Shown: positions 25,410-64,000 of the stretch, one piece after another
Numbering within the stretch: the stretch's first letter is position 1
Layout of the letters: the number at the start of each line of letters is the position of its first letter
From: Mobula hypostoma
Lineage: Eukaryota
Assembly (NCBI RefSeq): GCF_963921235.1
Contig: NC_086108.1
Span: 22,196,001-22,260,000, forward strand
DNA length: 64,000 nucleotides
Reading direction: 5' to 3'
The notes under the pieces: generated by a model
Database searches by the model: none
The model's input: only the letters and a program-made list of their open reading frames with translations
What the model was told of the DNA's origin: nothing
Program-made: the position numbers and the translations under genes

Positions 25410-25574
25410 GAGAAACGAATCGTCACCCTGGATTCTGCCAACTCTCGGCTGATGAATGCTCTAACACAGGTCAAGGAACGTTACAGCATGCAAACTCGCA
25501 ATGGGATCTCTCCCACCAACCCCACCAAGCTGTCAATAACAGAGAACGGGGAGTTCAAGAACAGCAGCTGTTGA
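25410..25574 (+). CDS. RASAL2: RASAL2 terminal coding exon
   Basis: ttctctcag acceptor. Encodes EKRIVTLDSANSRLMNALTQVKERYSMQTRNGISPTNPTKLSITENGEFKNSSC*. The ending matches RASAL2 rather than DAB2IP or SYNGAP1. Confidence 0.95.
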   Translation, partial: EKRIVTLDSANSRLMNALTQVKERYSMQTRNGISPTNPTKLSITENGEFKNSSC

Positions 25575-39551: not shown

Positions 39552-42500
39552 TTCTTTCTTTTTCAATCTTTTTATTAATTTCGAAGTATAGAAACAAAAC
39601 ATAGCAATAATACAAATAGTAGGAGAAATATTGTTACACTTAGGAAAAGTAATTGTAAAATCAAATAGTGTAAGTTAACAAAGCTCCCAATCATGTAGAA
39701 CTTACAACGGATAATACAAATCAAAAAAAAAACTGAAAAAAAATCATGAAAAAGAAAAAAAAACAAAACCAAAAAAAAAAACCCCATCCCCAAAGAAAAA
39801 CAGAATTAATCAACTAAACTAAAAGACTTGGGCAAAACTAACAATTTAAAAATGGAAAAGAAGAAGACCTCAGCATCGACGACTCCATTCCCCTCCAACA
39901 ACAGTACAGAGAGATAAAACAAGTTTGGAAATGATCAAATTACATCAAGTGAAAATGCTGAATGAATGGCCTCCCAAGTTTTTTCAAACTTAATGGAGGG
40001 GTCATAAACTGCACTTCTAACTTTCTCCAAATTCAAACACAACATAGTATGTGAAAACCAATGAAATACCTTAGGAGGGTTAATCTCTTTCCAATTCAAC
40101 AAAATGGACCTTCTAGCCATTAAAGTAAGAAATGCAATCATCTTTTGTGATGAAGAGGTTAAATTATTTAAGTCTATCATTGGTAGTCCAAAGATAGCAG
40201 TAATTGGATGAGGTTGTAAGTCTATGTTTAGGACCGTTGAAATAATATCAAAAATATCTTTCCAATATTTCTCCAATAAGGGACATAACCAAAACATGTG
40301 GGTTAAAGAAGCTATCTCGCAATGACATCTGTCACATATTGGATTAATATAAGAGTAATAACGAGATAGTTTACCTTTGGACATATGAGGCCTGTGCACT
40401 ACTTTAAACTGTATCAACCTATGCTTAGCACATACAGAGGATGAATTCACCAACTGAATAATTTTTTCCCATTTCTCAGTCGGTATATTAATCTCAAGTT
40501 CTCTTTCCCAGTCAGCTTTAATTTTATTAGAAGCATCAGGACATAAATTCACAATTATATTATATATAATTGCTACTACACTTTTCTGAGAGAGATTTAA
40601 ATCTAAGATTTTTTCCAAAATGTCCATTGGATATGGGTGTGGAAAATTAGGGGAAACAGTAATTAAAAAGTTTCTAATCTGTAAATATCTAAAAAAGTGA
40701 GATCTGGGTAAATTGTATTTATTAGAGAGTTGATCAAAAGACATAAAACGATTATCCAAAAATAAATCGCGAAAAGATATTATACCTTTGGTTTTCCAAT
40801 CAAAGTAAGCTTGATCCATCGTGGAAGGTTGAAAAAGAAAATTTGATATAATGGGACTTGCTAGAATAAATTGATTAAACCCAAAAAATCTTCGGAATTG
40901 AAACCATATACGTAAAGTATGCTTAACTATTGGGTTATTCATTTGTTTATATAATTTAAAAGAAGTAAAAGGAAGTGAAGTTCCTAAACCCGAACCCAAG
41001 GAAAACCCTTGTAATGAATTAGATTCAAGATTTACCCAATGAAGGTTTAAAGATACGTCCAAATCTCGTAACCAAAATTTTAAATATCGAATATTAATTG
41101 CCCAGTAATAAAATCTAAAATTCGGGAGGGCAAGCCCCCCCTCCTTTTTAAGATTTCTGTAGATACCTTTTTCCCAACCTAGGATTTTTATTCTGCCAAA
41201 TATATGAGGAAATTTTTGAATCTACGTGATCAAAAAAAGATTTTGGGATGAAAATTGGAACCGATTGGAATATATACAAAAATTTGGGCAAAATGATCAT
41301 CTTAATAGCATTAATCCGACCAATCAAAGACAAAGAGATTGGTGACCATTTGGTAAATAAAAGTTTAATCTGATCAATTAAAGGTAAAAAATTAGCTTTA
41401 AATAAATCTTTATTTTTTTTGTAATTGTTATCCCTAAATATATAAATGAATCAGTAACCAATTTAAATGGTAAACGTCCATAAGTAGGTACATGCTTATT
41501 TAAAGGGAATAATTCACTCTTATTAAGATTCAATTTGTAACCAGAGAAGTTACTAAATTGAGCTAACAGGTCTAAGATAGCAGGAGTTGACTTCTCCGGG
41601 TTAGAGGTGTATAACAACAAATCATCTGCATATAATAATTTATGTATTTCGTTTCCACGGGTAATCCCAACAATATTTGGCGAGTCACGAATAGCAATTG
41701 CTAAAGGTTCAACAGCAATATTGAATAGTAAAGGACTAAGAGGGCAACCTTGCCTAGTGCCACGAAAAAGACGAAAAAAAGGAGATCTATAATTATTTGT
41801 ACAAACCGAGGCTACCGGGGAGTAATATAACAATTTAATCCAAGATATAAATGTCAAATTAAAATTAAATTTCTCAAGAACATTAAATAAATAAGGCCAT
41901 TCAACTCTGTCAAAGGCTTTCTCAGCATCTAAAGAGATAATACATTCCAGGGTAGTAAATGAGGGGGTATAAACAATATTCATTAACCTCCTAATATTAA
42001 AGGATGAATAGCGATTTTTAATAAATCCGGTTTGATCCATAGAAATAATTTGAGGTAACACCTTCTCCAACCTAGTTGCTAGAATTTTTGAAAAAATTTT
42101 AGAGTCTACATTCAGAAGAGATATCAGTCTGTATGATGCACAATCAGTAGGATCTTTATTCTTTTTAAGAATTAAGGAAATAGAGGCTTCGTCAAACGAT
42201 TGTGGTAATTTACCTAAACTGATTGCTTCCTTGAATATTCTAGACAACTTAGAAGAAAGAATGGAGGAAAAAAATGTTTAAAATTCCACTGTAAACCCAT
42301 CCAGACCGGGTGCTTTACCGGAACTCAATGATGAGATTGCAGTAATTATTTCTTCCTCTGAAATGGAAATTTCTAATGATAGGGACTCTTCGGTTGATAA
42401 TTTCGGAAAACTAAATTTACCTAAAAAAATCATGCATGAAATTAGAATCATGAGGAAAATCAGAGTGATATAGAGAGGTATAAAATTCTTGAAAGGTTTG

Positions 42501-45500
42501 ATTTATCCCAACATGATCAACTGTGAAAGTATCATCCTGTTTGCGAATCTTAGTAATTTGACGTTTAACCGAATCAAATTTCAATTGGTTGGCCAGTAAT
42601 TTACCCGATTTATCGCTATGAATATAAAAATCACTTCTAGTTGATTTTCGATCGAGGATGTTAATTGGAGTTCAACTCTGTGTTTGTACAGCTCCTTACT
42701 GAGAGAAATAGCATATTTTTTATTGACTTCTTTAATCTTATCAACCAACAAAAGTATTTCATTATTAACACATCTTTTCAAACCGGCCGAATAAGAAATA
42801 ATCTGACCACGGATATAAGCTTTAAAGGCGTCCCAAACAGTTCCATTGGAAACTTCTTCCGTAGTATTAGTTGAAAAGAAGAAATCAATCTGCTCCTTTA
42901 TAAATTTGACAAAGTCCTGATCTTGAAGCAAAATAGGGTTAAATCGCCATTGTCTGCTAGTACAAGAGGTGTCCATTAACTTGATGGAAAGTTTCATTGG
43001 AGCATGTTCTGAAATAACAATACTGTCATAATTACAATCAACTACATATGAAATCAAACAAGAGTCAATCAAGAAATAATCAATTTGAGAAAAAGAACGA
43101 TGAACATGTGAAAAAAAGGAGAATTCCTTATCATTTGGATGTAGAAATCTCCAAATTTCTGAAATTCCAGAATCCAACATAAAAGAGTTAATAATAGTAG
43201 CCGACTTAATCGGTAAAGCCGGACTAGCTATGGATCTGTCCAACATGGGATTCAAACATAAATTAAAATCACCGCCCATTATCAACATATACTCGTTCAA
43301 ATTAGGAAAGGAAGTGAATAAGTGTTTAAAAAATTCAGGATAATCCACATTCGGAGCGTAAACATTAACCATAGCGACCTTTTTATTAAAAAGTACCCCA
43401 GTAATTAACAGAAATCTGCCATTAGGATCTGAAATAATGTCTTGATGAATAAATGTAATTGAAGGATCAATAAAAATTGAAACGCCTTTAATTTTGGCCT
43501 GAGCATTTGAGCGGTATTGTTCTTCCTTCCAAAACTTAAAGAAGCGTTGATTGTCCTCTTTCCTTACATGAGTCTCTTGTGCAAAAATAATATGAGCATT
43601 CAGTCTTTGGAACACTTTGAAAACCTTTTTCCGTTTTATTGGATGATTTAAACCATTTGTATTCCAAGAGACAAAATTAATAGTATGAGCCATAATTGAA
43701 AATTAACCCTTTGGTGAGTAAGGGGTTAACCATAATGTGAGCTCATGAAATCGGAAGAGGAATACATAATTAGAGAGGAACCGGAAATCTCGACACTGCG
43801 GACATCTTTGTAGTTCTGAATCAGCCCAATAGAAAAAATTAAAAAGAAAAAGACTATCCCCTCCCCCAACCCCAAGAACCCCAAACTAAGCCAAAAAAGG
43901 CTGAAGAAAGCTCTAACTAAAACTAATTCTAACCCCATTTCTGCAGGGGGCAACTCCAAAAATATATGTTAAATAGGTGACCTCCCAGAGACTAATATAT
44001 GTAAAAAATAACCAGTATAATAATTAGTCTACATAGTAAAAATTACTAAAATATATAAAATAAAAAACTTAGTCAATACGTATAATTAGTTAAAGGCGAG
44101 TAAATAAAAAATCACTTCCAAAAGGAAAAAAAGGATTATGGGAAGAAGAAGCATAAGAACATGGCGTCTCAAAAAAAAACAAAGGAGGTTATACAAAAAG
44201 AAATACAAGTCGCCATTTTAATTATGCAAGAACCAAAAATAGGAAACATATAACTAAAAGTGATCGTCGGATCAGATCATTAATGATACCAAAAAAGGAA
44301 AAGTAAAAACAAAAGGTTAACTAAAGGAGAATGATGTTATTCACAGGAGATAAGTATTCTATATAAGTTATAGAATAACAACTATAGTAATAAACAAAGA
44401 ACAAAAATCTTGGACTTATAAAAAAACCTTCATCACACGGTAGTAAAAGGTTTATTTTAAAGAAACACCAGAAAGGAAAAAAAAAATTGGTGCTGGAAGC
44501 ACCCGACACAGATCAAGAGAGGGTGTCTGTATCAGATGGGAAGTTATCATCCAAAAAACTTCGAGCGGCAGTTGTAGAGTGGAAAACACGACGATTTCCA
44601 TCGGGAAGAGAAATTCTGAGACGTGCAGGATACAATAGTGCCGGTTTGAGATTTTTTTGATAGCATTCCGACATTAGAAGTTTAAAAGTCAGTCGTTCCT
44701 TCATCACTTCAGGACTGTAATCTTGAACTATCCTGAAGGAATGCTGGTGATACTTGATCATCCCTTGTCGACGAGCGGTCTGGAGAAGCTATTCTTTAAC
44801 ATTGACATAATGGAAACGAAGAATAACTGGTCTGGGTTTGGAAACAGCCGCTGCCAACTTTATCCACAGTATACGATGGGCGCGGTCGAGTAATGGAGGA
44901 TCGTTGGGAAAAACTGAACCGAACGAATCCTTTAAAAGTTGAGCAAAGAATATTGCAGGGTCTCCAACCTCAACATCCTCGGGTAAGCCAATTAAACGTA
45001 AGTTTTGTCTTCTCGATCGATTCTCAAGATCAATAACTTTGGATTTAAGTTGTTGAAGTTGTTTAGTAGTCGAAGCTAGATTCTTCTCTAAAATCTCAAT
45101 TTTTGTGTCCATCTTCTGAGATTTAGTATCCAGTTCAGAAATTTTTGCATCGTGTTTTTGAACATCAGAATCCAGGGATTTCAAAGAATCCATGATTGAT
45201 TTTAAATCTTCATTGAGGCTTTGACGATGTTGTTCAAATTGAGCAGTTAAACTTTCAGATAGTTTTATCCGATGCTGCTCAAACATTTCCTTCATAACTT
45301 CGTAAGTTAATTCCGTTTGTTTGTTTGGAATCGCCTTTCTTCTTTCTTCCGTTCCCATCGGCGTCTTTCCCATCTTTAGTTCTAGATCTCGTACTCATTT
45401 CTCTAAGCTCGAAAGTTACAGTTGACAAAAGGAAATCAGTTAATCAGTAAATCAAGAAGATAAAGTAAATCTGGTGTACTTAAAGTTGATTAGATCAAGG

Positions 45501-46429: not shown

Positions 46430-47030
46430 CCTGAGGCCAGGGTTTGTTTGCCCCACAGTGCGGTTCACAGGAAGTGCTCTTTGCCCCGCAGTTCGCCTCA
46501 ACACTAGTCCCTGCAGCGTTCCCACTGACAAAGTCGTCGGGTTGGCAATTGGCGGTGAATGTCCTACCATCGCGGTTGTTTGCAGGCGGCTCCAGGCTCG
46601 GGAAAAGCGGAGATGAAATGAGTGATTTCTGGAAGGGTTGAGGAAGCTCCTGTTGAAAAATGGACGAATGGAATAGAAGTGAAGGCCGGCAGACGCGAGG
46701 TGAGGTGATCTGTGAGTGTTGTGCTGCTTTGAGTGAGTTGTCCAGGAGAAGACTAGTTTGGTTAAGGGAGTTCCCAAGTGTTGGGGAGTTAGTATTGTTA
46801 AAATAAATTATGTAGTTATGTTGGAAACCCTGCGGGACGAATTTTTGCATGGGTGTTATTTCAGGTGTGACGGTGAAGGGAAATGAAGTGATCCCCTGTC
46901 GGGACCCATAAGTTTCTCAAGAGTTTATAAAGCTCTCAGAGTTGAACAAGTGCCCTCACCGCCCGCTCTACATACCGGCCAAGGTGCCTCCCCGTTACAA
47001 TGTCCGCAATTTATCGATCGTTACGACTAG
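46430..47030 (+). promoter_or_regulatory. CpG-rich candidate promoter / first-exon region
   Basis: Local CpG enrichment in sequence I do not recognise as a repeat, against a CpG-poor background. Contains a Kozak-context ATG and splice donors. Confidence 0.5.
46660..46699 (+). CDS. Candidate first coding exon of an unidentified gene (MDEWNRSEGRQTR, phase 1)
   Basis: aaaATGG Kozak context with an upstream in-frame TGA. The GAG|gtgagg donor is phase 1, compatible with the downstream phase 1-1 exons. Confidence 0.45.
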
Positions 47031-54991: not shown

Positions 54992-55311
54992 AAGCTCCAC
55001 CCAGACAGCAGTGAGCTGCGAGGTAGTGTGTCTGTCTGTCTGTCTGTCCCTCCCTTCCTAAGCTCCATCCAGACAGCAGTGAGCTGCGAGGTTGTGTGTC
55101 TGTCTGTCTGTCTGTCCCTCCCTTCCTAAGCTCCATCCAGACAGCAGTGAGCTGCGAGGTTGTGTGTGTGTGTGTGTGTGTGTGTCTGTCTGTCTGTCTG
55201 TCTCTCCCTCCCTTCCCCCCTCCCTTCCCAAGCTCCACCCAGACAGCAGTGAGCTGCGAGGTAGTGTGTGTGTGTGTGTGTCTGTCTGTCTGTGTCTCTC
55301 CCTCCCCCCCC
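54992..55311. repeat. Four-copy minisatellite (AAGCTCCAYCCAGACAGCAGTGAGCTGCGAGGT plus variable TG/TCTG/CCCT microsatellite)
   Basis: Units start at 54992, 55060, 55128 and 55230 (spacing 68, 68 and 102 bp). Confidence 0.95.
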
Positions 55312-55805: not shown

Positions 55806-55880
55806 AAAGCCCAAATGAAGAGTGTGGATACAACCAGAGGCCAGGAGAAATCTCGCAGGTGGAGCCCACTTCTGAGAATG
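55806..55880 (+). CDS. Symmetric phase 1-1 exon (75 nt) of the unidentified gene
   Basis: tctttatttcag acceptor and ATG|gtaaag donor. Open frame (E)SPNEECGYNQRPGEISQVEPTSEN. The donor flank gtaaagtggtgag resembles gtaaaatggagag of the repeat exons. Confidence 0.65.
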
Positions 55881-56291
55881 GTAAAGTGGTGAGATGTGTG
55901 TTTGTGAGGAACACGGTCCCAGTTGAACAGAATGGATGTTGGACCTGTCGTGTTTCAAGCTGTAAAGCAAAACTAAACACAAATACAAAGGCAGTAGTAA
56001 CTGAAACATTAGAACATGCAGTGATATAAGTGGTGTAGAAGGAATTAAGTAGATTTGAATTGCTAGTTAATGGTGTGTATGAATTGTATATTATTTTATA
56101 CACAGTGCCTTGAAAAACTGGTCAGCCCCCAACCCTTTGTTCATGTCATTTTTTAAAATTTTATTTTATTTTATTGAGATGCAGCGTGAAGTCAGCCCTT
56201 CCGGCCCTTCGAGGCGCACCGCCCAGCAACTCCCGATTTAACCCTCATCTCATCTCGGGACAGTTTACAATCACCAATTCATCGACTAACC

Positions 56292-58748
56292 TGTTGGCCA
56301 TGGTGGATTTCTGTGTACATACATCTATTGATGCTTCTGGACACATCTTCAGTGATGTTCCTGGAATCATCGGGTGTTTTGGGTCTTTCAACAGCATACA
56401 ACCTCCTCCAGGTGACCCAGCCGGGGCTGATCAGACCCCAGCTTGTGTCCAGATGGCTAGCTACTTATGACTCCATGGCTCCCTTCTTTTGAGCCACAGC
56501 CATCTTGAGGCCCTCTCTGCCGCATCGGTGGTACTGCGGATGGCTCTCCTCTTCCTCTCTCCCTCGATGCCCAAAATGCTGAAGGCTCTAACTAAAGAAC
56601 GGGCTATGAATCCCCTACAACCAACCTCCACTGGGAGACACCTCGCACGCCATCCAGCCTGCTGACAGTTGCTGACCAGTCCTGCGTATTTGGAGAGCTT
56701 CCTTTCAAAGGCCTCTTCCAAGCTATCTTCCCATGGGACTGTCAGCTCCAGCAGCACCACTTGCTGAGTTGACTCAGCCACTAGGGCAATGGTCACAGGG
56801 TGGTGGCTGCGATATGGTTGGGGAACTTCAGCTGCCCATCGAGGTCCACCAACAGCTGCCAGTCCCTTGCAGAGGTCAGAATGCCTGCAGATGTTCTTTT
56901 GGCAGGTATTGGTTGCTCCCCAGCTCTGACAAAGGCAATGGTCTGCTTGGAGGGTCGGGACCACTTCGCCCACTCAACGCCTACACTCACGGCTTCAGCG
57001 ATGGTTTTCAGGTCCTGATCATGCCTCCACCTGTACCGTCCCTCACCAAGTGCCCTTGCACAGCCGCTGAGGATGTGCTCCCGGGTTCCTCGCTTGGAGC
57101 ACAGTGGGCACGCAGATGACTCTGCCTTGCCCCATGTGTGCAGGTTTGATGGGCTTGGAAGCACATTGTACACTGCCTGGATGAGAAATTGGATGCGGTG
57201 TGGTTCGGCTTTCCAAAGATCAGCCCAGGTCACTTCCTCTCAACCGCATTCTCCCATCTTGTCCAAGCTCCCTGTTGCTTCATTCCCACCGCCTTGCAGG
57301 CTCTCATCTTCTCTACTACTGCTCTCACCTCCTCCTGAACTAGACGACGCCTTTCCTTCCCTCTGGTGTCCATTTGGGGAGTTGGAAAGGATCCTAGCCC
57401 AGCTCGGCCTCGTGTGACCACTCCCACCAGCCTCCTGTGACGTAGCCTCGCCTCTGTCTCCTGAACAGCTTCCTCTGCCCTCCACTTCCTGCCAGTACTT
57501 ACTTGGATTCCTGCTCTAGCCACCTTCGGGTCACTTGAGTCCCTATACTGTAGCACTTCTCTGGCTCTTGTTACCTTGAATTCTTCCTCCAAGGATTTGA
57601 AGGGCAGTTGCAGTGTGTTGTGGTGTCCATAGAGTGCAATGCTGCTCAGGCTCTTTGGCAGCCCCAGCCATCTCCTGAGGTGGTTGCTAACCCTCCTCTC
57701 TAAGGTTTCGACTGTCGAGATCAGAACTGCATAGACGAGGAGGGGCCACAGGATTGTGGGAAGAATGCCATGCTGATACACCCAGGCTTTAAACTTCCCA
57801 GGTAGGCCAGACTTGTCCACAGATTTCAGCCAGCCATCCAACTCGGTGCAGGTTGCCTGAATGGATATTGTGTCCCTTAAAGAGCTGTCAAAACTTTGCC
57901 TAAGCTCTTGACTGGCTTTTCTGTGATGGTTGGGATGGCTGTGCCTGCGATGCTGAACCGGAACTTGATTTAAAATAGGGAAGACGAATGAAGGACGGTG
58001 AAGCAGACAGACCAATTGCCTTTGTTCTTGCCATGAGGGAGAAGATGGAGGCTGCCATTTTATGAAGATACTGTATACCCCATTTTGTGAATCATTCGCT
58101 TGGCTTGATCAGTGTTTTAAAGTTGACACAATGGTGCCTCAAGTAATCTGCTGAACGAGGGATCATTTCCAAATAAGAAGTTACTTGTGAGGTGTTCTTT
58201 GGTTGGATATAACATGCAAGTTTTTGACTGTTAGGGTCTGAACCTGTGTTGTGTGATTCAAGCTGGTTGCTGAGTGAGAACAGAGAGCCGTACATTACCG
58301 ATTGTCACTTGCTGGGAAGAGGGCAATAGGTGGATGTAGGCTGGGAACAAGAGGCAATAAAAAGGTGTTAAAGGTCAGACATGTGACTTATAGCCAATGA
58401 CATTGGAATATAACATTTGAATTGGTAAGGAATAATATAGAAGTGGACACTTTGATTGTGCTATCAGCGATAACTCTCTCCAGAGACCCACAATCGCAAG
58501 GAAGAACCCCCACGCCAGGGGCTGGGAGAAGAAGGATCGGTCATCTCCCAGTTCTGTGCTGTAAATTGGAGAAGTGGTCTGAGTGAGTACTGGTACAAAG
58601 GGCACAGTAGAAGTCATGATCTCAGTTGTGGCCTGGGCTCAACATAGTTACGTTGTTGTTTGTGCAGAGACAATAAAGTGCGAGTTTTAATTAATTACGA
58701 GTTACGTAGTGAGTTTCTTAATCTAGTTCTGTCGATGAACAGTCAGCA
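56292..58748 (+). mobile_element. Probable solo LTR (about 800 bp once the Hero insert is removed)
   Basis: TGTTGGC...GTCAGCA termini, near-perfect 4-bp TSD AACC/AACT, and AATAAA about 70 nt before the right end. Confidence 0.6.
56311..57966 (-). mobile_element. Hero-like (R2-group, RLE endonuclease) non-LTR retrotransposon, 5'-truncated
   Basis: RT thumb (SGLPGKFKAWVYQHGILP), CCHC knuckle CPLC..EHILSGC, RWRHD and RLE motif VVLLELTVPWE...PVEVGCRG. Possible GATTT TSD. Confidence 0.88.
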
Positions 58749-58850
58749 AACTGGTATGTCTTTGGACTGTGGGAGGAGATCCACACGGTCATGGGGAGAA
58801 CGTACGTTCCTTACAGGCAGCGGCGGGAAAGCGTTGTGCTGGCGTCCCAC

Positions 58851-59280
58851 CTGTGTACATACATCTATTGATGCTTCTGGACACATCTTCAGTGATGTTC
58901 CTGGAATCATCGGGTGTTTCGGGTCTTTCAACATCATACAACCTCCTCCAGGTGACCCAGTTGGGGCTGATCAGACCCCAGCTTGTGTCCAGATGGCTAG
59001 CTACTTATGACTCCATGGCTCCCCTCTTTTGAGCCACAGCCATCTTGAGGCCCTCTCTGCCGCATCGGTGGTACTGCGGATGGCTCTCCTCTTCCTCTCT
59101 CCCTCGATGCCCAAAATGCTGAAGGCTCTAACTAAGGAACGGGCTACGAATCCCCTACAACCAACCTCCACTGGGAGACACCTCGCTCTCCATCCAGCCT
59201 GCTGACAGTTGCTGACCAGTCCTGCGTACTTGGAGAGCTTCCTTTCAAAGGCCTCTTCCAAGCTATCTTCCCATGGGACT
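58851..59280 (-). mobile_element. Second, shorter Hero-like copy (3' 430 bp)
   Basis: Near-identical to 56311-56740, with the same 3' terminus. Confidence 0.9.
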
Positions 59281-60259
59281 AGGAGTATTTCACCCAAGGA
59301 TTTTGATCAATTTCACTGTGAATTTTTAATTGTGCATCACATGCTCTTTTTTTCACAGTAGAGCCCAAAAAATTGGAGAATTGTACAACATGAAAACTAA
59401 AAATTCAAAAACTGAAATATTGGCAGTTCAAAGGTATTCACCCCCCCTTTGCTCAGTATTTAGTTGAACCACCTCTCACTGCTGTTACAGCCCGTAGTCT
59501 TTTGGATCAGCCTCTACCAACTTTGTACAGCGTAATGGAGCAAGATTTGCCCATACCTTCTTCTACCAACTTTGTACAGCGTGATGGAGCAAGATTTGCC
59601 CATACCTTCTTGAAAAACTGCCCAGGCTGTGCCAGGTTAGTTAGGGAGTGGCAGTGGACAGCAGTCTTGCGGTCTTGCCAGAGATATTCAATTGGGTTAA
59701 AGTCAGGACTCTGACTGGGCCACTCAAGGACATCAATTTTTTTCACTTGAAGCCCTCCATGGTCGCTCTGGCAGTGTGCTTTGGGTCGCTGTCCTGCTGA
59801 AAGACCAACTTCCTCCCCAGTTTAAGCTTTCTGGCAGCGTTCATCTTCCCATGAATCTTGAGCAGATTTCCAATTCCTGCTGCCGTAAAGCATACTTTAC
59901 AGTAGGGATGGTGTTACCTGGCTGATGCACGCTGTTAATTTATGCCACATTTACTGTTTAGTGTTGAGGCCAAAAAATTTCGCTTCGGTCTCATCTGACT
60001 ACAAGATCTGTTTCCACATCTTTACAGTGTCTTCTAAGTGACACTTTGCAAAGTCTTTAAGGACAAGGATCTGCTCTTTGTTTTTTTTTTAAACCAAGGC
60101 TTCTTCCTTGCCACTCTTTCATAAATCCCCTTTTTGTGCAAGAGCTTAAAGATTGTGGATCCATAAACTTCATCTCGAGTTGCCGCCGCTGACTTCCGCA
60201 GTTCACTCAGAGTTGGCATCACAGTGGCCCCTGTTCCAGAATCGCTGAGTGTGTGCAGC

Positions 60260-60574
60260 CACCCAGGGCGTGCCCTCTTCTCACTGTTACCGTCAGGAAG
60301 GAGGTACAGAAGCCTGAAGGCACACACTCAGCGATTCAGGAACAGCTTCTTCCCCGCTGCCATATGATTCCTAAATGGGTATTGAACCCATTAACACCAC
60401 ATCACTTCTTTATTATTTCTGTTTTGCACTATTTTTAATCTAACTATTTAATATACATACATATTAACATTTATTTTGTTTCTTTCTACATTATCATGCA
60501 TTGCATTGTCCTGCTGCTGCAACATTAACACATTTCATGACACATGCTGGTGGTAATAAACCTGCCTCTGATTC
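60260..60574 (+). mobile_element. Rex1/Babar 3' tail fragment
   Basis: CAGGAAGGAGGTACAGAAGCCTGAAGGCACACACTCAGCGATTCAGGAACAGC matches 50403-50455. Ends AATAAACCTGCCTCTGATTC. Confidence 0.85.
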
Positions 60575-60591
60575 TTTCTTTCCCCCATTAG

Positions 60592-60699
60592 AACCTATCA
60601 ATGAGAATGGGAGATGTAACAGTTTACCAATGAGGGATACACAAGACGCGGAGTGTTCCAAAGATCCAAAAGAGCTTCAAGTCGGAGCAGATAATGAAG
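60592..60699 (+). CDS. Repeat exon A (108 nt, phase 1-1) of the unidentified gene
   Basis: cccccattag acceptor and AAG|gtaaaa donor. Encodes (E)PINENGRCNSLPMRDTQDAECSKDPKELQVGADNE. Confidence 0.75.
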
Positions 60700-61757
60700 G
60701 TAAAATGGAGAGGAGTTGCACGGCATTCCCTGTGTTGGGTCTCTTGTCTATTCAGTTCTCATTTAATCAAAAATACTGCAGTATGGAGTATGTGCTTTCC
60801 GATTCCTCACCAGATGCCATGCAGAATTCTCAGCAGAAGAATGGTGCCCTATGTTTAATTCTGAAGTTCATGTCAATCTCATTTGAAACCCAAAGTTTGG
60901 GAGAGCAGGGAGAACATTCTCATCCCTTTTTACATCATCAAGCACAATTCTTTACAGTATTTATACTTACAGATGCCTGCTTTTACAGTATTACCTCGAT
61001 GGAAGCACTCAACAATAAAGTTGTAGACCTCATACTTGCTTCAGTGCGATTCTCTGATCCTAGCTGCAAACTGCATCTGCTAAACCATCATAAGTCTAGC
61101 CAGCAATTCTGCAAGTGAGATAATGCACATCCTGTTTAATCACTTAATATACAAACTCCAGTCAACATTAAATGACTTTATGATTGTAGATGGTGAAAGC
61201 GAGCTTACTGCTTGTCTGCCTGCCGTCTTTGATTCATTTATCTTTCTGGTTAATCAAATATGAACATCACAGATGCCTGTCCCCAGGCAATTTGATTCAC
61301 TGCATGTGATGTCAAGAATCAGCAAGGAGCATGAAGGATAGGGGTTCAGACATCACTCCAGTCTTACCTGTGAAGACCTGTGCCTCTAGAAAGCTGTTCC
61401 AGTACGGTTGCAACACTGTCATTGTGGAAAATTGTCTGGTATGTCCTGTTCACAAAGTGCTGGATTTACTCAACTCAGCTAATTACCATTCCTTCAGTCT
61501 GTTCTCAAACCCCAGCAGTCTGATGGAAGGTGGTGTTGACAGTGTTTCAAGAGCCAGCTACTCACTAGTAACCTGTTGTACACCAGGCCTCATCACAGCT
61601 TTACCAAGAACACTGTCTTTTTTTTTTAACAAAGATTTCAACTTTCACTAAGCTTTTTCATCATTGCAAGTGTTTTTTTCCCATCTTTTGAATAAGCTTT
61701 CTCTCTATTTGGAATGATCACTGATGATTCTTATCTGTATTCCACCAGTTTCCTCAG

Positions 61758-61865
61758 AACCTCTAAATGGTAAAGAGAGATCTGATGAGAAGCCATTGAT
61801 TGATGAACAAGATTCAGAAAGTTCCGAGAATCCAAAGGAATTTGAAGTTGACGAGGATAATGAAG
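61758..61865 (+). CDS. Repeat exon B (108 nt, phase 1-1) of the unidentified gene
   Basis: tttcctcag acceptor and AAG|gtaaga donor. Encodes (E)PLNGKERSDEKPLIDEQDSESSENPKEFEVDEDNE. Not called in this frame by the ORF track. Confidence 0.78.
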
Positions 61866-62574
61866 GTAAGATGGAGAGGAGCTGCAGGGCCAGTCTTTGA
61901 GCTTTATTCCCTGTGCTCACATCTCCCATACCCCCATCTCTCACATACTCAGAAATACACTGGGATGCTTTCTCATTCCTCACCAGGAGTTCCACTTTGA
62001 AGAATGTAGACATGTTCGATGCTGAGATCTCTGTCAATCTCATTTTAAGACTGTGGATAGGAAGAGCAGGGAGGATATTCTCACCTTTTTTTTCGCTGCC
62101 TTGCATTACCAAGCAATCTGCATACTGCTATCTGGTTGAAAGTTACCTTTGATTAAAGTAATCATAACGTATTACAGATGGGGAAATAATGAGAAAGCTT
62201 TAGCTGAAGATGATAGAAATTTTGGTTACGCCCCTGAATGTAAGTAAAGCCAGTTAATTGGTTGATATCTGGTTCAGGACTGTGCTCTGTTATTTTCCAT
62301 GAAGTTCAGCTATTTGGTAGAACATTTAATTGGCTTCAGAATAGCATCAATACTCTTTATAGACACTGCTTTTCTGCTGAGTTGTACAAGATTAACATAC
62401 AAATTAGTGAAACAGTTTTGAACAGAGGTGGGAACTAATTCATATTGCTGCTCTTTTTCTCAGTGGATTCCTGTGCTTGATTTACTAGTTGTCCAGCTGG
62501 TTGCATCTTCCTATTATACAAGTCAAGCCCTGTTTTGTGTTTATGTCTAGTTGCCAATAAATCTCCAGACAATT

Positions 62575-62950
62575 TTCTTCTCCGTTCCCCATTTTGGCTC
62601 CCCTCGTACCCCTTCCTTTCCAGCCGCTCATCACCTCCGCCCCCCCGGTGCCACCACTCCTTCCGTTTCTCCCATGGCTTACCCTCCCCTCCTATCATTT
62701 TCCATCTTCAGTCTTTCACCTTTCCCACCTCTCACCTCACCCACCCACTTTCCCCCTTGGCTGGCTTCACCTATCACCTTCTAGCTTGTACTCCTTTCTC
62801 TTCCCCCACCTTCTTATTCTGGCTTCTGTCCCCTTCCTTTCCAGTCCTGAGGCAGGGTCTCGGCCGAAACGCCGAATGGTTATTTCCCTCCATGAGTTCT
62901 TCCATTATTTTGTGTGGGTTGCTCTGGATTTCCAGCATCTGCAGAATCTT
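62575..62950 (+). mobile_element. Penelope-like terminal fragment
   Basis: Pyrimidine-rich body ending AGGGTCTCGGCCGAAACG...GATTTCCAGCATCTGCAG, the reverse complement of the 45700 and 37472 repeats. Confidence 0.7.
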
Positions 62951-63120
62951 TTGAGTTCTTGAAAGGATCTTGATTAGAGTTCAGTCAGCAATCATGTTTA
63001 TGCAAAGATTTTATATTTGCAGAGAATGTTCATTGTTATGAGTTGGCACCATTTTGATTAATAACATGTCTGTATTTGGAACTGTGCTAATCATTCTTAG
63101 TTTTATTTCTGTTTCCCTAG

Positions 63121-63225
63121 AACCCATGAATGAAAAATGGAGACAAGATGAGATACCGACAAATGCGCAAGACTTGAATTGCTCCAAGGATCCAAAAGAA
63201 ATTGACATTGAAGAAGAGAATAAAG
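63121..63225 (+). CDS. Repeat exon C (105 nt, phase 1-1) of the unidentified gene
   Basis: gtttccctag acceptor and AAG|gtaaaa donor. Encodes (E)PMNEKWRQDEIPTNAQDLNCSKDPKEIDIEEENK. Confidence 0.78.
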
Positions 63226-64000
63226 GTAAAATGGAAAGAGCAGGGTTGCTTAATTGCCTGTGTTGGGCCTGATACACTGCTCCCACCACACGCACATGCC
63301 TATCTGTTGTATAATCAAAAATACTCTATTATGGAGTTTGTACTTTGTCATTCCTTACCAGATGCCTGTTCAGTTCTCAACAAAACCCTGCAGAGACACA
63401 TTAAACATTGAGAACTCTTTCAATCTAATTTGAAACCCGAGGTTTTGGAGAATGGGAAGGAAATTTTCTCCCTACGCTTTGCCTTCCTACATGACCAAGT
63501 ATACTTAAAGTTCTGTCTGTTTTTATCTGTGACCAGATTCTATACCATGTTCCCAATATAAATTCCCAATGCGGACACACAGTTTACAGTTAAATCTCTA
63601 AAGTATTCATAGTATATTAAAGAACGGCAAATATTAAATGTGTTTGAGCAGGATAGTGAAAGCCTTTTGTCACTGTGACCTATCTATGGGCTCTAATATT
63701 GATTATCGTGCAGTTCTGTGATTAAGAGCAAGTTTCAGAAAGGCATCAGTATTGTTTATGGGATTATATCATCACTGATAAGTGACAGATTTATCATACT
63801 CAACTATTTAAAGTATGTTGAATGGAATTCGGATTGATTTCCAATCACCTGCTCTTATTCCAGATAGGTTCCTGGGCCTTGTTCATCAAGCTGCTGACAA
63901 ATTGCATCATCGAAGTTTAAATTTTGCTTCCATGTCCAGGGAACCACAGAACTGTAGACGGCTTTCGATTCAGCTGATAGTTCTGTTTATTTGATAACCA

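Follow-up and report, generated by a model that had tools for sequence, protein, structure and literature searches.

What gene carries the three homologous exons near the end of the window, the stretch of 64,000 nucleotides of Mobula hypostoma analysed here (contig NC_086108.1, positions 22,196,001 to 22,260,000), and is that gene still adding copies of them? A sequence-only reading had described the gene as unidentified and as growing by tandem duplication of symmetric exons that encode an acidic repeat. The first claim fails, because RefSeq model P0233 has exactly these exons: the gene is already known, annotated as a membrane protein of the LAP1/LULL1 (TOR1AIP) family, and the repeat exons form the acidic, predicted-disordered N-terminal tail, or front half, of a predicted single-pass TOR1AIP-family protein. 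The TOR1AIP/LAP1-like identity that the reading had offered as a weak guess proved correct, with a LAP1_C domain in the terminal exon, and its denial of any resemblance to the RALGPS2 N-terminus stands, none of the 44 RasGEF matches among the scored candidates lying in the window.

The repeat-bearing gene, A, is the first of three head-to-tail TOR1AIP paralogues (A, B and C), and the gene upstream of it carries a DAB2P_C domain. Its exon chain consists of seven tail exons and a terminal exon encoding the transmembrane segment and LAP1_C; exons 6 and 7 and the terminal exon lie past the window end, where the proposed extension beyond 64000 found two further repeat exons and the terminal one. 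Positions past 64000 continue the window numbering, and adding 22196000 converts positions to contig coordinates. The features are:

46660-46699, + strand: exon 1, the first coding exon, with the ATG, 13 codons and a phase-1 donor; the mapping of P0233 starts here
55806-55880, + strand: exon 2, 75 nt, phase 1-1
60592-60699, + strand: exon 3, repeat unit 1, 108 nt, phase 1-1; 23/36 identical to sawfish unit 1
60700-63500, + strand: homologous intron segments, about 250 nt behind each repeat exon, which mark genomic tandem duplication
61749-61865, + strand: exon 4, repeat unit 2; 23/34 identical to sawfish unit 2
63121-63225, + strand: exon 5, repeat unit 3, 105 nt; 28/35 identical to sawfish unit 3
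63226-64000, + strand: intron 5, which runs off the window end
65339-65443, + strand: exon 6, repeat unit 4 (nhmmer E 8e-18)
67249-67347, + strand: exon 7, the diverged repeat unit 5 (E 0.018, backed by protein alignment)
68870-69642, + strand: terminal exon, with transmembrane segment, LAP1_C and stop
69801, + strand: AATAAA downstream of the A terminal exon
105763-158157, + strand: paralogue B
174448-203303, + strand: paralogue C

All junctions rest on the genome sequence and on database models, and the junction between exon 7 and the terminal exon (67347>68870) is a putative one drawn from orthologues. The spliced frame comprises 473 aa without stops. Around exon 1 the observed/expected CpG ratio is 0.75-0.88 against a background median of 0.27, and the 75-nt exon at 55806-55880, missing from Hemitrygon model P0267, is a genuine phase 1-1 exon of the gene, as had been proposed. 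The three repeat exons first read from the letters (60592-60699, 61758-61865 and 63121-63225; 108, 108 and 105 nt, starting after ag with AACC and ending in AAG before gtaaRatgg) are open solely in the phase 1-1 frame. The boundaries of the middle one hold, but its annotated start is a second, in-frame acceptor at 61749, which lengthens exon 4 from 108 to 117 nt, adds VSS and is used in 5/5 stingray/devil-ray models. Alone among the database models, P0233 has exactly these exons; it holds exons 1-7 letter for letter but ends in paralogue B's domain, and for this lineage the protein collection yielded no 473-aa product that closes with A's own terminal exon.

The terminal exon matches PF05609 LAP1_C at 262.5 bits (cut-off 26.8) over profile positions 7-232 of 233, and it aligns with the domains of LAP1 (4TVS; E 4e-64, 219.6 bits) and LULL1 (5J1S; E 3e-60, 206.8 bits) with the key residues in register. 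R451, within SGLWSRI, is the putative arginine finger, aligned with 4TVS position 211, that is LAP1 R563 (LULL1 R449); C312, C384 and C470 correspond to LAP1 C424, C496 and C582, and AIIHHF is a degenerate Walker B, the roles of the arginine finger and related residues being those given in the available text of PMC4358337. The sawfish orthologue P0001, with an 89% identical domain and the same repeats, has a predicted AAA+-like fold (Foldseek 5J1S_B E 1e-21, 4TVS_A E 3e-20, rmsd 2.3 A), and its pLDDT is below 50 across nearly all of residues 1-222. Ahead of the single hydrophobic segment (about 222-240, hydropathy peak 2.26) the N-terminal tail falls below the Uversky boundary, with D+E at 0.27 and a net charge of -0.14 per residue, and the coding, modular, acidic and disordered tail read from the window is thereby borne out.

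With these features, and with five PF06309 matches marking torsin genes in the genome, A is probably an ER torsin activator of the TOR1AIP family. In the ER lumen its domain would likely use the conserved arginine to activate torsin ATPases, as family knowledge suggests, and the acidic tail, from its LULL1-like charge, would likely serve as a length-tolerant cytosolic spacer. A type II topology, torsin activation and an ER rather than inner-nuclear-membrane location would all follow by analogy, the membrane orientation being taken from knowledge of the family.

The second claim, that the array is growing, also fails. Each of the five units, three of them in the window as first counted and two past its end, best matches a different sawfish unit, in identical order; the sawfish orthologue thus carries the same repeats copy for copy, and the array is old here. 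Comparison shows that the units arose when a phase 1-1 exon was duplicated in tandem in the genome together with its intron, at a time preceding the sawfish split, and that the arrays of sharks are younger and expanded separately. Pairwise identity among the three window exons is 0.66-0.68 (z 9.8-12.4 against shuffles), and the introns behind them are homologous, as had been noticed (z 12.5-14.1). Among the 345 candidates in a search with the tail peptide, three matched, and each of them is a batoid TOR1AIP model. Dispersed-repeat origin was rejected, a whole-genome DNA search giving four matches, all inside the three known copies, although the absence of other matches is weak evidence by the tool's own warning. 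The suggested kinship of exon 55806-55880 with the repeats gave z 0.6-2.6, and on the repeat profile that exon scores 1.7 bits (its sawfish copy 7.5) against shuffle maxima of up to 3.5. One sawfish 34-aa exon and two short insertions have no counterpart here: the sawfish peptide gave no convincing + strand tblastn match to a remnant of the exon (best E 2.3), and two microexon candidates, of 9 and 12 nt, were rejected, as they do not encode the sawfish residues.

The proposed comparison of exon with intron divergence gave a divided answer: the frame is kept far above neutral expectation, but exon identity is not above that of introns (0.66-0.70). In neutral simulations at the observed divergence all three copies stayed intact in 0.05-0.08% of 4000 runs, and while the introns show 15 gaps in 621 columns, no gap in the three exons breaks the frame. 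Amino-acid-level selection among the copies is modest, with a pN/pS of 0.49 that is reached in 2.4-7.1% of neutral runs; the NG86 omega of 0.30 is not relied on as it stands, since under neutrality transition bias pushes omega down, and saturated dN/dS pairs with units 4 and 5 were left out. All introns mapped in the three-gene cluster are phase 1, so that gain, loss or skipping of an exon should leave the frame intact, and because the frame would survive any such event, selection appears to act mainly on frame and acidity and weakly on sequence. The independent skipping of cassettes that had been predicted has indirect support in exon-sized in-frame deletions in annotated isoforms of 6/8 species compared, but all five units are kept in 5/5 stingray/devil-ray models.

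The possibility that survives best beside the spacer, though an unlikely one, is that the repeats act as an array of short motifs for binding or phosphorylation (around S-K/E-D/N-P-K-E), the number of copies setting how avidly a cytosolic partner is bound. A C/S-S-x-x-P-K-E core is repeated across units 1-3 and reappears in the sawfish copies, orthologous ray and sawfish units are 52-80% identical, pN/pS lies under the neutral median, and symmetric disordered exons that carry repeated motifs are a pattern described in the available text of PMC3632108. However, a repeat profile built from the ray, which finds units in 5/5 batoid A-tail proteins, is weak in two sharks (8.7-11.3 bits) and finds none in seven other shark A-tail proteins or in chimaera protein P0130, all of which are still acidic, as is every A-tail protein compared; nor does any Pfam family match in the 5/5 repeat or tail exon peptides scanned.

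The structure of P0233 raises a slightly less probable alternative, in which the acidic tail is a shared module and read-through regularly skips A's terminal exon and B's first exon, placing the A tail in frame before B's neutral tail and domain in a chimera of 750-1300 aa that would be rerouted from nuclear envelope to ER. The 20 exons of P0233 match the genome letter by letter and include the join 67347>110493. This A>B join stands in RefSeq models of 6/19 elasmobranch species (two Mobula, Hypanus, Hemitrygon, Carcharodon and Scyliorhinus torazame), none of which yielded a full-length A-domain protein, and models of two more, Stegostoma and Narcine, have a B>C join. A could also be hidden if the annotation discards short isoforms as a rule, although P0304, at 0.55 of its longest isoform, is a counter-example. 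Against regular read-through, the pattern most often seen in conjoined genes is splicing from the penultimate to the second exon, which occurred in 8/10 arbitrary close gene pairs, by the available text of Prakash et al. 2010 (PMC2953495), and uniform phase 1 puts any read-through leak in frame. Annotated proteins with an A-type tail and A's own domain exist in 13 elasmobranch species, A's terminal exon is intact with AATAAA downstream, and A's branch (0.09) is no longer than C's (0.11). Paralogue B, moreover, has its own CpG-rich first exon, at which 4/4 full-length Logan-assembled skate B proteins examined start, and the donor exon of the join varies in sharks. Since the P0233 chimera hides an intact terminal exon of A, the current annotation probably merges two genes. 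The same observations (three head-to-tail paralogues, all-phase-1 introns, A>B in six species and B>C in two) would fit a bolder and still more doubtful idea, that the shark and ray TOR1AIP cluster is a combinatorial cassette in which regulated read-through swaps the acidic ER tail onto a nuclear-envelope paralogue's luminal domain, one locus redistributing torsin activation between ER and nuclear envelope. If abundant and regulated, the read-through product would be a conserved mechanism of domain swapping between paralogues.

It is improbable, finally, that A works at the inner nuclear membrane as a LAP1-like activator, with a tail for binding lamins or chromatin. The domain scores slightly better against LAP1 than LULL1, and the mammalian TOR1AIP1 N-terminus is likewise many-exon and alternatively spliced, as the available text of PMC4252041 has it. 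The tail, however, is strongly acidic, with two KK pairs only and no RVxF-type motif, and PF20443 LAP1_N finds nothing at E<=0.1 in either P0233 or P0001 where the primate LAP1 control P0232 gives 242 bits, the reach of this profile being short, because many bird LAP1 rows also have no listed match. Net tail charge per residue is -0.09 to -0.18 in 9/9 A-type proteins, at tail lengths of 181-456 aa (P0122: 864 aa), and -0.08 to -0.14 in 12/12 tetrapod TOR1AIP2-labelled proteins, all being at or below -0.08 on an acidic-tail criterion that is our own measure; neutral, LAP1-charged tails (-0.04 to +0.05) belong to 9 B, 9 C and 14 TOR1AIP1-labelled proteins. The charge of the A tail stays constant while its length ranges from about 180 to about 860 aa. 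As for the reading that the repeats are non-coding duplicated DNA with frames open by chance, the alike identity of exons and introns would suit it, but it is effectively refuted by the neutral survival of 0.0005-0.0008, by the absence of frame-breaking gaps and by annotated orthologues that hold the same peptides.

The domain tree, unrooted, of 30 rows, without a mammalian LULL1 row and with gene conversion not excluded, rejects A as exclusive sister of either tetrapod TOR1AIP2 (AU p 3e-71) or TOR1AIP1 (AU p 1.4e-7), and in it the A, B and C domains are placed apart from those of tetrapod LAP1 and LULL1. Compared with tetrapod tails, none of the A, B or C tails scores clearly above shuffles. 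With the sister grouping to TOR1AIP2 rejected and no tail homology detected, it is by tail charge alone that A is called LULL1-like. Cartilaginous fish have three predicted torsin activators whose domains stand apart from those of tetrapod LAP1 and LULL1 and whose tails show the same split into acidic and neutral. This recurrence of the split despite the separate domain grouping points to the charge of the tail, and not its sequence, as what sends an activator to the ER or to the nuclear envelope, and the length series of A tails is a natural one for testing charge sorting. The gene overall is mostly ordinary and its repeats are old; RefSeq already contains both, and the enlargement of disordered regions through duplicated symmetric exons is a described process.

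The closest known counterparts are the batoid RefSeq models named torsin-1A-interacting protein 2-like (sawfish P0001/P0249, and P0233), which are the same gene with units in the same order. Gene A shares with LULL1/TOR1AIP2 (5J1S chain B), placed in the peripheral ER by the available text of PMC7175109, a single transmembrane segment, a luminal LAP1_C, the arginine finger and cysteines, hhhhHH at the Walker B position, an acidic N-terminal tail and a similar size; it differs in that it is not the exclusive orthologue by the domain tree and that its tail, without detectable homology, is made of exon-sized repeats. Ray A also sits in a head-to-tail array of three genes, whereas human TOR1AIP1 and TOR1AIP2 are divergent neighbours, according to the accessible part of 10.1101/2025.11.07.687155. 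With LAP1/TOR1AIP1 (4TVS) it has in common the domain and catalytic arginine, and many small N-terminal exons, skipping and a tandem 3' splice site (available text of PMC4252041), but the LAP1 tail is neutral and has lamin- and chromatin-binding regions, as far as the available text of PMC7773337 describes it, and A has no LAP1_N match and its clade with TOR1AIP1 is rejected. No papers on TOR1AIP genes of cartilaginous fish were found in the open-licence literature, and "TOR1AIP" has 0 occurrences in the main text of Schad et al. 2013 (PMC3632108). The proteins treated in the available portion of that paper are alike in symmetric exons, disorder and internal tandem duplication, whereas here the uniform phase spans three neighbouring paralogues. 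Set beside the conjoined genes of Prakash et al. 2010, the partners here, known from database models, are distinguished as paralogues with interchangeable C-terminal domains.

The three homologous exons picked out in the sequence-only reading lie at 60592-60699, 61758-61865 and 63121-63225, with AG/GT ends, lengths of 108, 108 and 105 nt and one open frame, hence phase 1-1, and an alignment of the three copies shows them to be 66-68% identical to one another. The homology claimed for the downstream introns was borne out over the first 250 nt after the exons (z 12-14), and a genome-wide DNA search returned four matches, all inside the array, and thus no sign of a dispersed repeat. Extension past 64000, for which 200 kb downstream of the window was added with window numbering carried on, located two more units and then the C-terminal domain exon. 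The eight exons of this gene (gene A, with units 1-5 as exons 3-7), the ATG exon and the 75-nt exon included, encode 473 aa without a stop. The exons adding to the array are:

46660-46699, + strand, first coding exon (ATG), part of the eight-exon open frame
65339-65443, + strand, repeat unit 4 (unit profile, E 8e-18)
67249-67347, + strand, repeat unit 5, weak (unit profile, E 0.018)
68870-69642, + strand, terminal exon of 773 nt, with a hydrophobic segment and the LAP1_C domain (262.5 bits)

The gene A domain aligns with human LAP1 (4TVS; E 4e-64) and LULL1 (5J1S; E 3e-60), vindicating a weak guess at a TOR1AIP/LAP1-like gene, and the same alignments show that the arginine finger is kept, as are three cysteines conserved in the family (for their roles, see PMC4358337). 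The predicted structure of the sawfish orthologue has the same domain fold and an unstructured N-terminus. The gene is not, as had been supposed, unidentified: the RefSeq model P0233 opens with the 216 residues of exons 1-7, exactly matched, and takes a second acceptor 9 nt upstream of 61758. The top protein matches, among the best 120 of 356 and a second set of 112 longer ones, come from batoids, bear the name "torsin-1A-interacting protein 2-like" and contain these repeats too. The array is a real feature in an annotated gene of a known family, one on whose members in cartilaginous fish the open-licence literature yielded nothing.

Three LAP1_C matches were found in the genome among 18 candidates scored, all on the + strand within 134 kb, corresponding to paralogues A, B and C. 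Introns are in phase 1 throughout P0233 (19/19), gene A (7/7) and gene C (7/7), as is the first-exon donor of B; phase 1 makes up about one third of human introns, according to PMC3632108. In an unrooted 62-row domain tree, with rows other than mammalian LULL1 and invertebrates, A, B and C each form one clade spanning sharks and rays, and together (95/93) stand apart from tetrapod TOR1AIP1 and TOR1AIP2 (96/99), a shape that gene conversion could also yield. Groupings of A with TOR1AIP2 and of A with TOR1AIP1 were both rejected by AU tests on 30 of the 62 rows, the 32 left out including the long Scleropages branch. Paralogue B (L008-L009, 143901-148031, + strand) has a repeat set of its own, four phase 1-1 exons of 90 nt that are homologous to one another at 58-77% identity, with intron homology in the last pair only (z 3.9). 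The domain of B (L010, 157379-158157) has evolved faster in stingrays and devil rays, where its identity to sawfish is 72% and that of the A and C domains 89% and 91%, and keeps the arginine finger.

The array had been described as growing by duplication, a view that comparison with sawfish does not sustain. Units 1-5 each best match a different sawfish unit, in the same order (23/36, 23/34, 28/35, 27/35 and 17/33 identical), so the duplications are older than the split from sawfish, and because one sawfish exon has no counterpart in the Mobula genome, the array is stable or shrinking in Mobula. That split dates back well over 100 million years. Shark orthologues have younger arrays of near-identical copies, with tails of up to 864 aa, barely or not recognised by the ray repeat profile. 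With all introns in one phase, units could be added, lost or skipped without disturbing the tail's frame; exon-sized in-frame deletions occur in A tails of 6/8 species (32 isoform comparisons, among which near-identical shark repeats may produce false junctions), and all five units are kept in 5/5 stingray and devil-ray models. All three copies stayed intact in 0.05-0.08% of 4000 neutral simulations, a share uncorrected for the exons having been picked out for their intactness, and pN/pS among copies was 0.49, a value reached in 2.4-7.1% of neutral simulations; exon copies were no more alike than intron copies. These comparisons point to clear selection on frame and splice sites and to modest selection on residues.

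In P0233, exon 7 is followed directly by the second exon of B at 110493, so that the terminal exon of A and the first exon of B are both left out. Among the matches listed, 19 elasmobranch species have an A-type tail, 6 with this A>B join and 13 with separate A models; three further species, Mustelus, Heterodontus and Scyliorhinus canicula, have no A protein among those matches. RefSeq models as a rule rest on RNA-seq junctions, and an isoform that is short may be left out, which would explain the absence of A's own product from models, although one isoform of 0.55 length was kept elsewhere and the dropping is thus no strict rule. In our reading, the A>B models probably reflect read-through at a low level to which annotation has given prominence: A has an intact terminal exon, as conserved as C's and followed by AATAAA, B's own CpG-rich start is used by 4/4 full-length Logan-assembled skate proteins, and a penultimate-to-second-exon join is the commonest conjoined-gene pattern (PMC2953495; PMC5431906 adds little). 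Regulated swapping of tails between paralogues, with the A>B chimera as its product, would seem decidedly improbable beside such read-through. A B>C join occurs in models of two species, Narcine (P0296) and Stegostoma (P0148/P0282); the Narcine model retains few B exons, no Narcine B-domain protein is among the matches listed, and in this species the terminal exon of B may have been lost or may lack annotation.

Upstream, three 3' exons matching DAB2P_C (PF12004; 11685-25621, + strand) belong to a gene ending near 25571 that is, judging by its sequence, a RasGAP of RASAL2/DAB2IP/SynGAP type, presumably RASAL2 from synteny; human RASAL2 is not known to be adjacent to TOR1AIP1/2. An L1-type retrotransposon (39938-45394, - strand) with an ORF1-like coiled coil, endonuclease (PF03372) and RT (PF00078), its coding sequence broken up over several frames, lies upstream of gene A, some 1.2 kb from the first exon. 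Intron 1 holds a 68-bp tandem repeat of 2.8 copies with GT/CTGT microsatellites (54992-55257), and intron 2 a minus-strand non-LTR retrotransposon fragment with a weak zf-RVT match (56311-59280) and a partial second copy, 98% identical, 2540 nt downstream.

Tail charge separates the family without overlap, in rows hand-picked from the matches and with TOR1AIP1/2 labels taken from the source databases: tails are acidic in A (8 elasmobranchs and 1 chimaera) and in TOR1AIP2-labelled proteins (12), and near-neutral in B (9), C (9) and TOR1AIP1-labelled proteins (14). Some tetrapod proteins of TOR1AIP2 type, P0195 (Pogoniulus) and P0178 (Ambystoma), have expanded, near-identical acidic tail repeats whose sequence shows no relation to that of the ray unit, apparently independent expansions. 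The gene A tail has no basic clusters and no LAP1_N match. Its length and acidity would be expected to work against binding to chromatin and against entry into the inner membrane. Both LAP1, at the inner nuclear membrane, and LULL1, in the ER, supply an arginine that completes the torsin active site, according to PMC7175109, PMC7773337 and 10.1101/2025.11.07.687155. The role most likely to fall to gene A would be that of LULL1, as a putative ER torsin activator.
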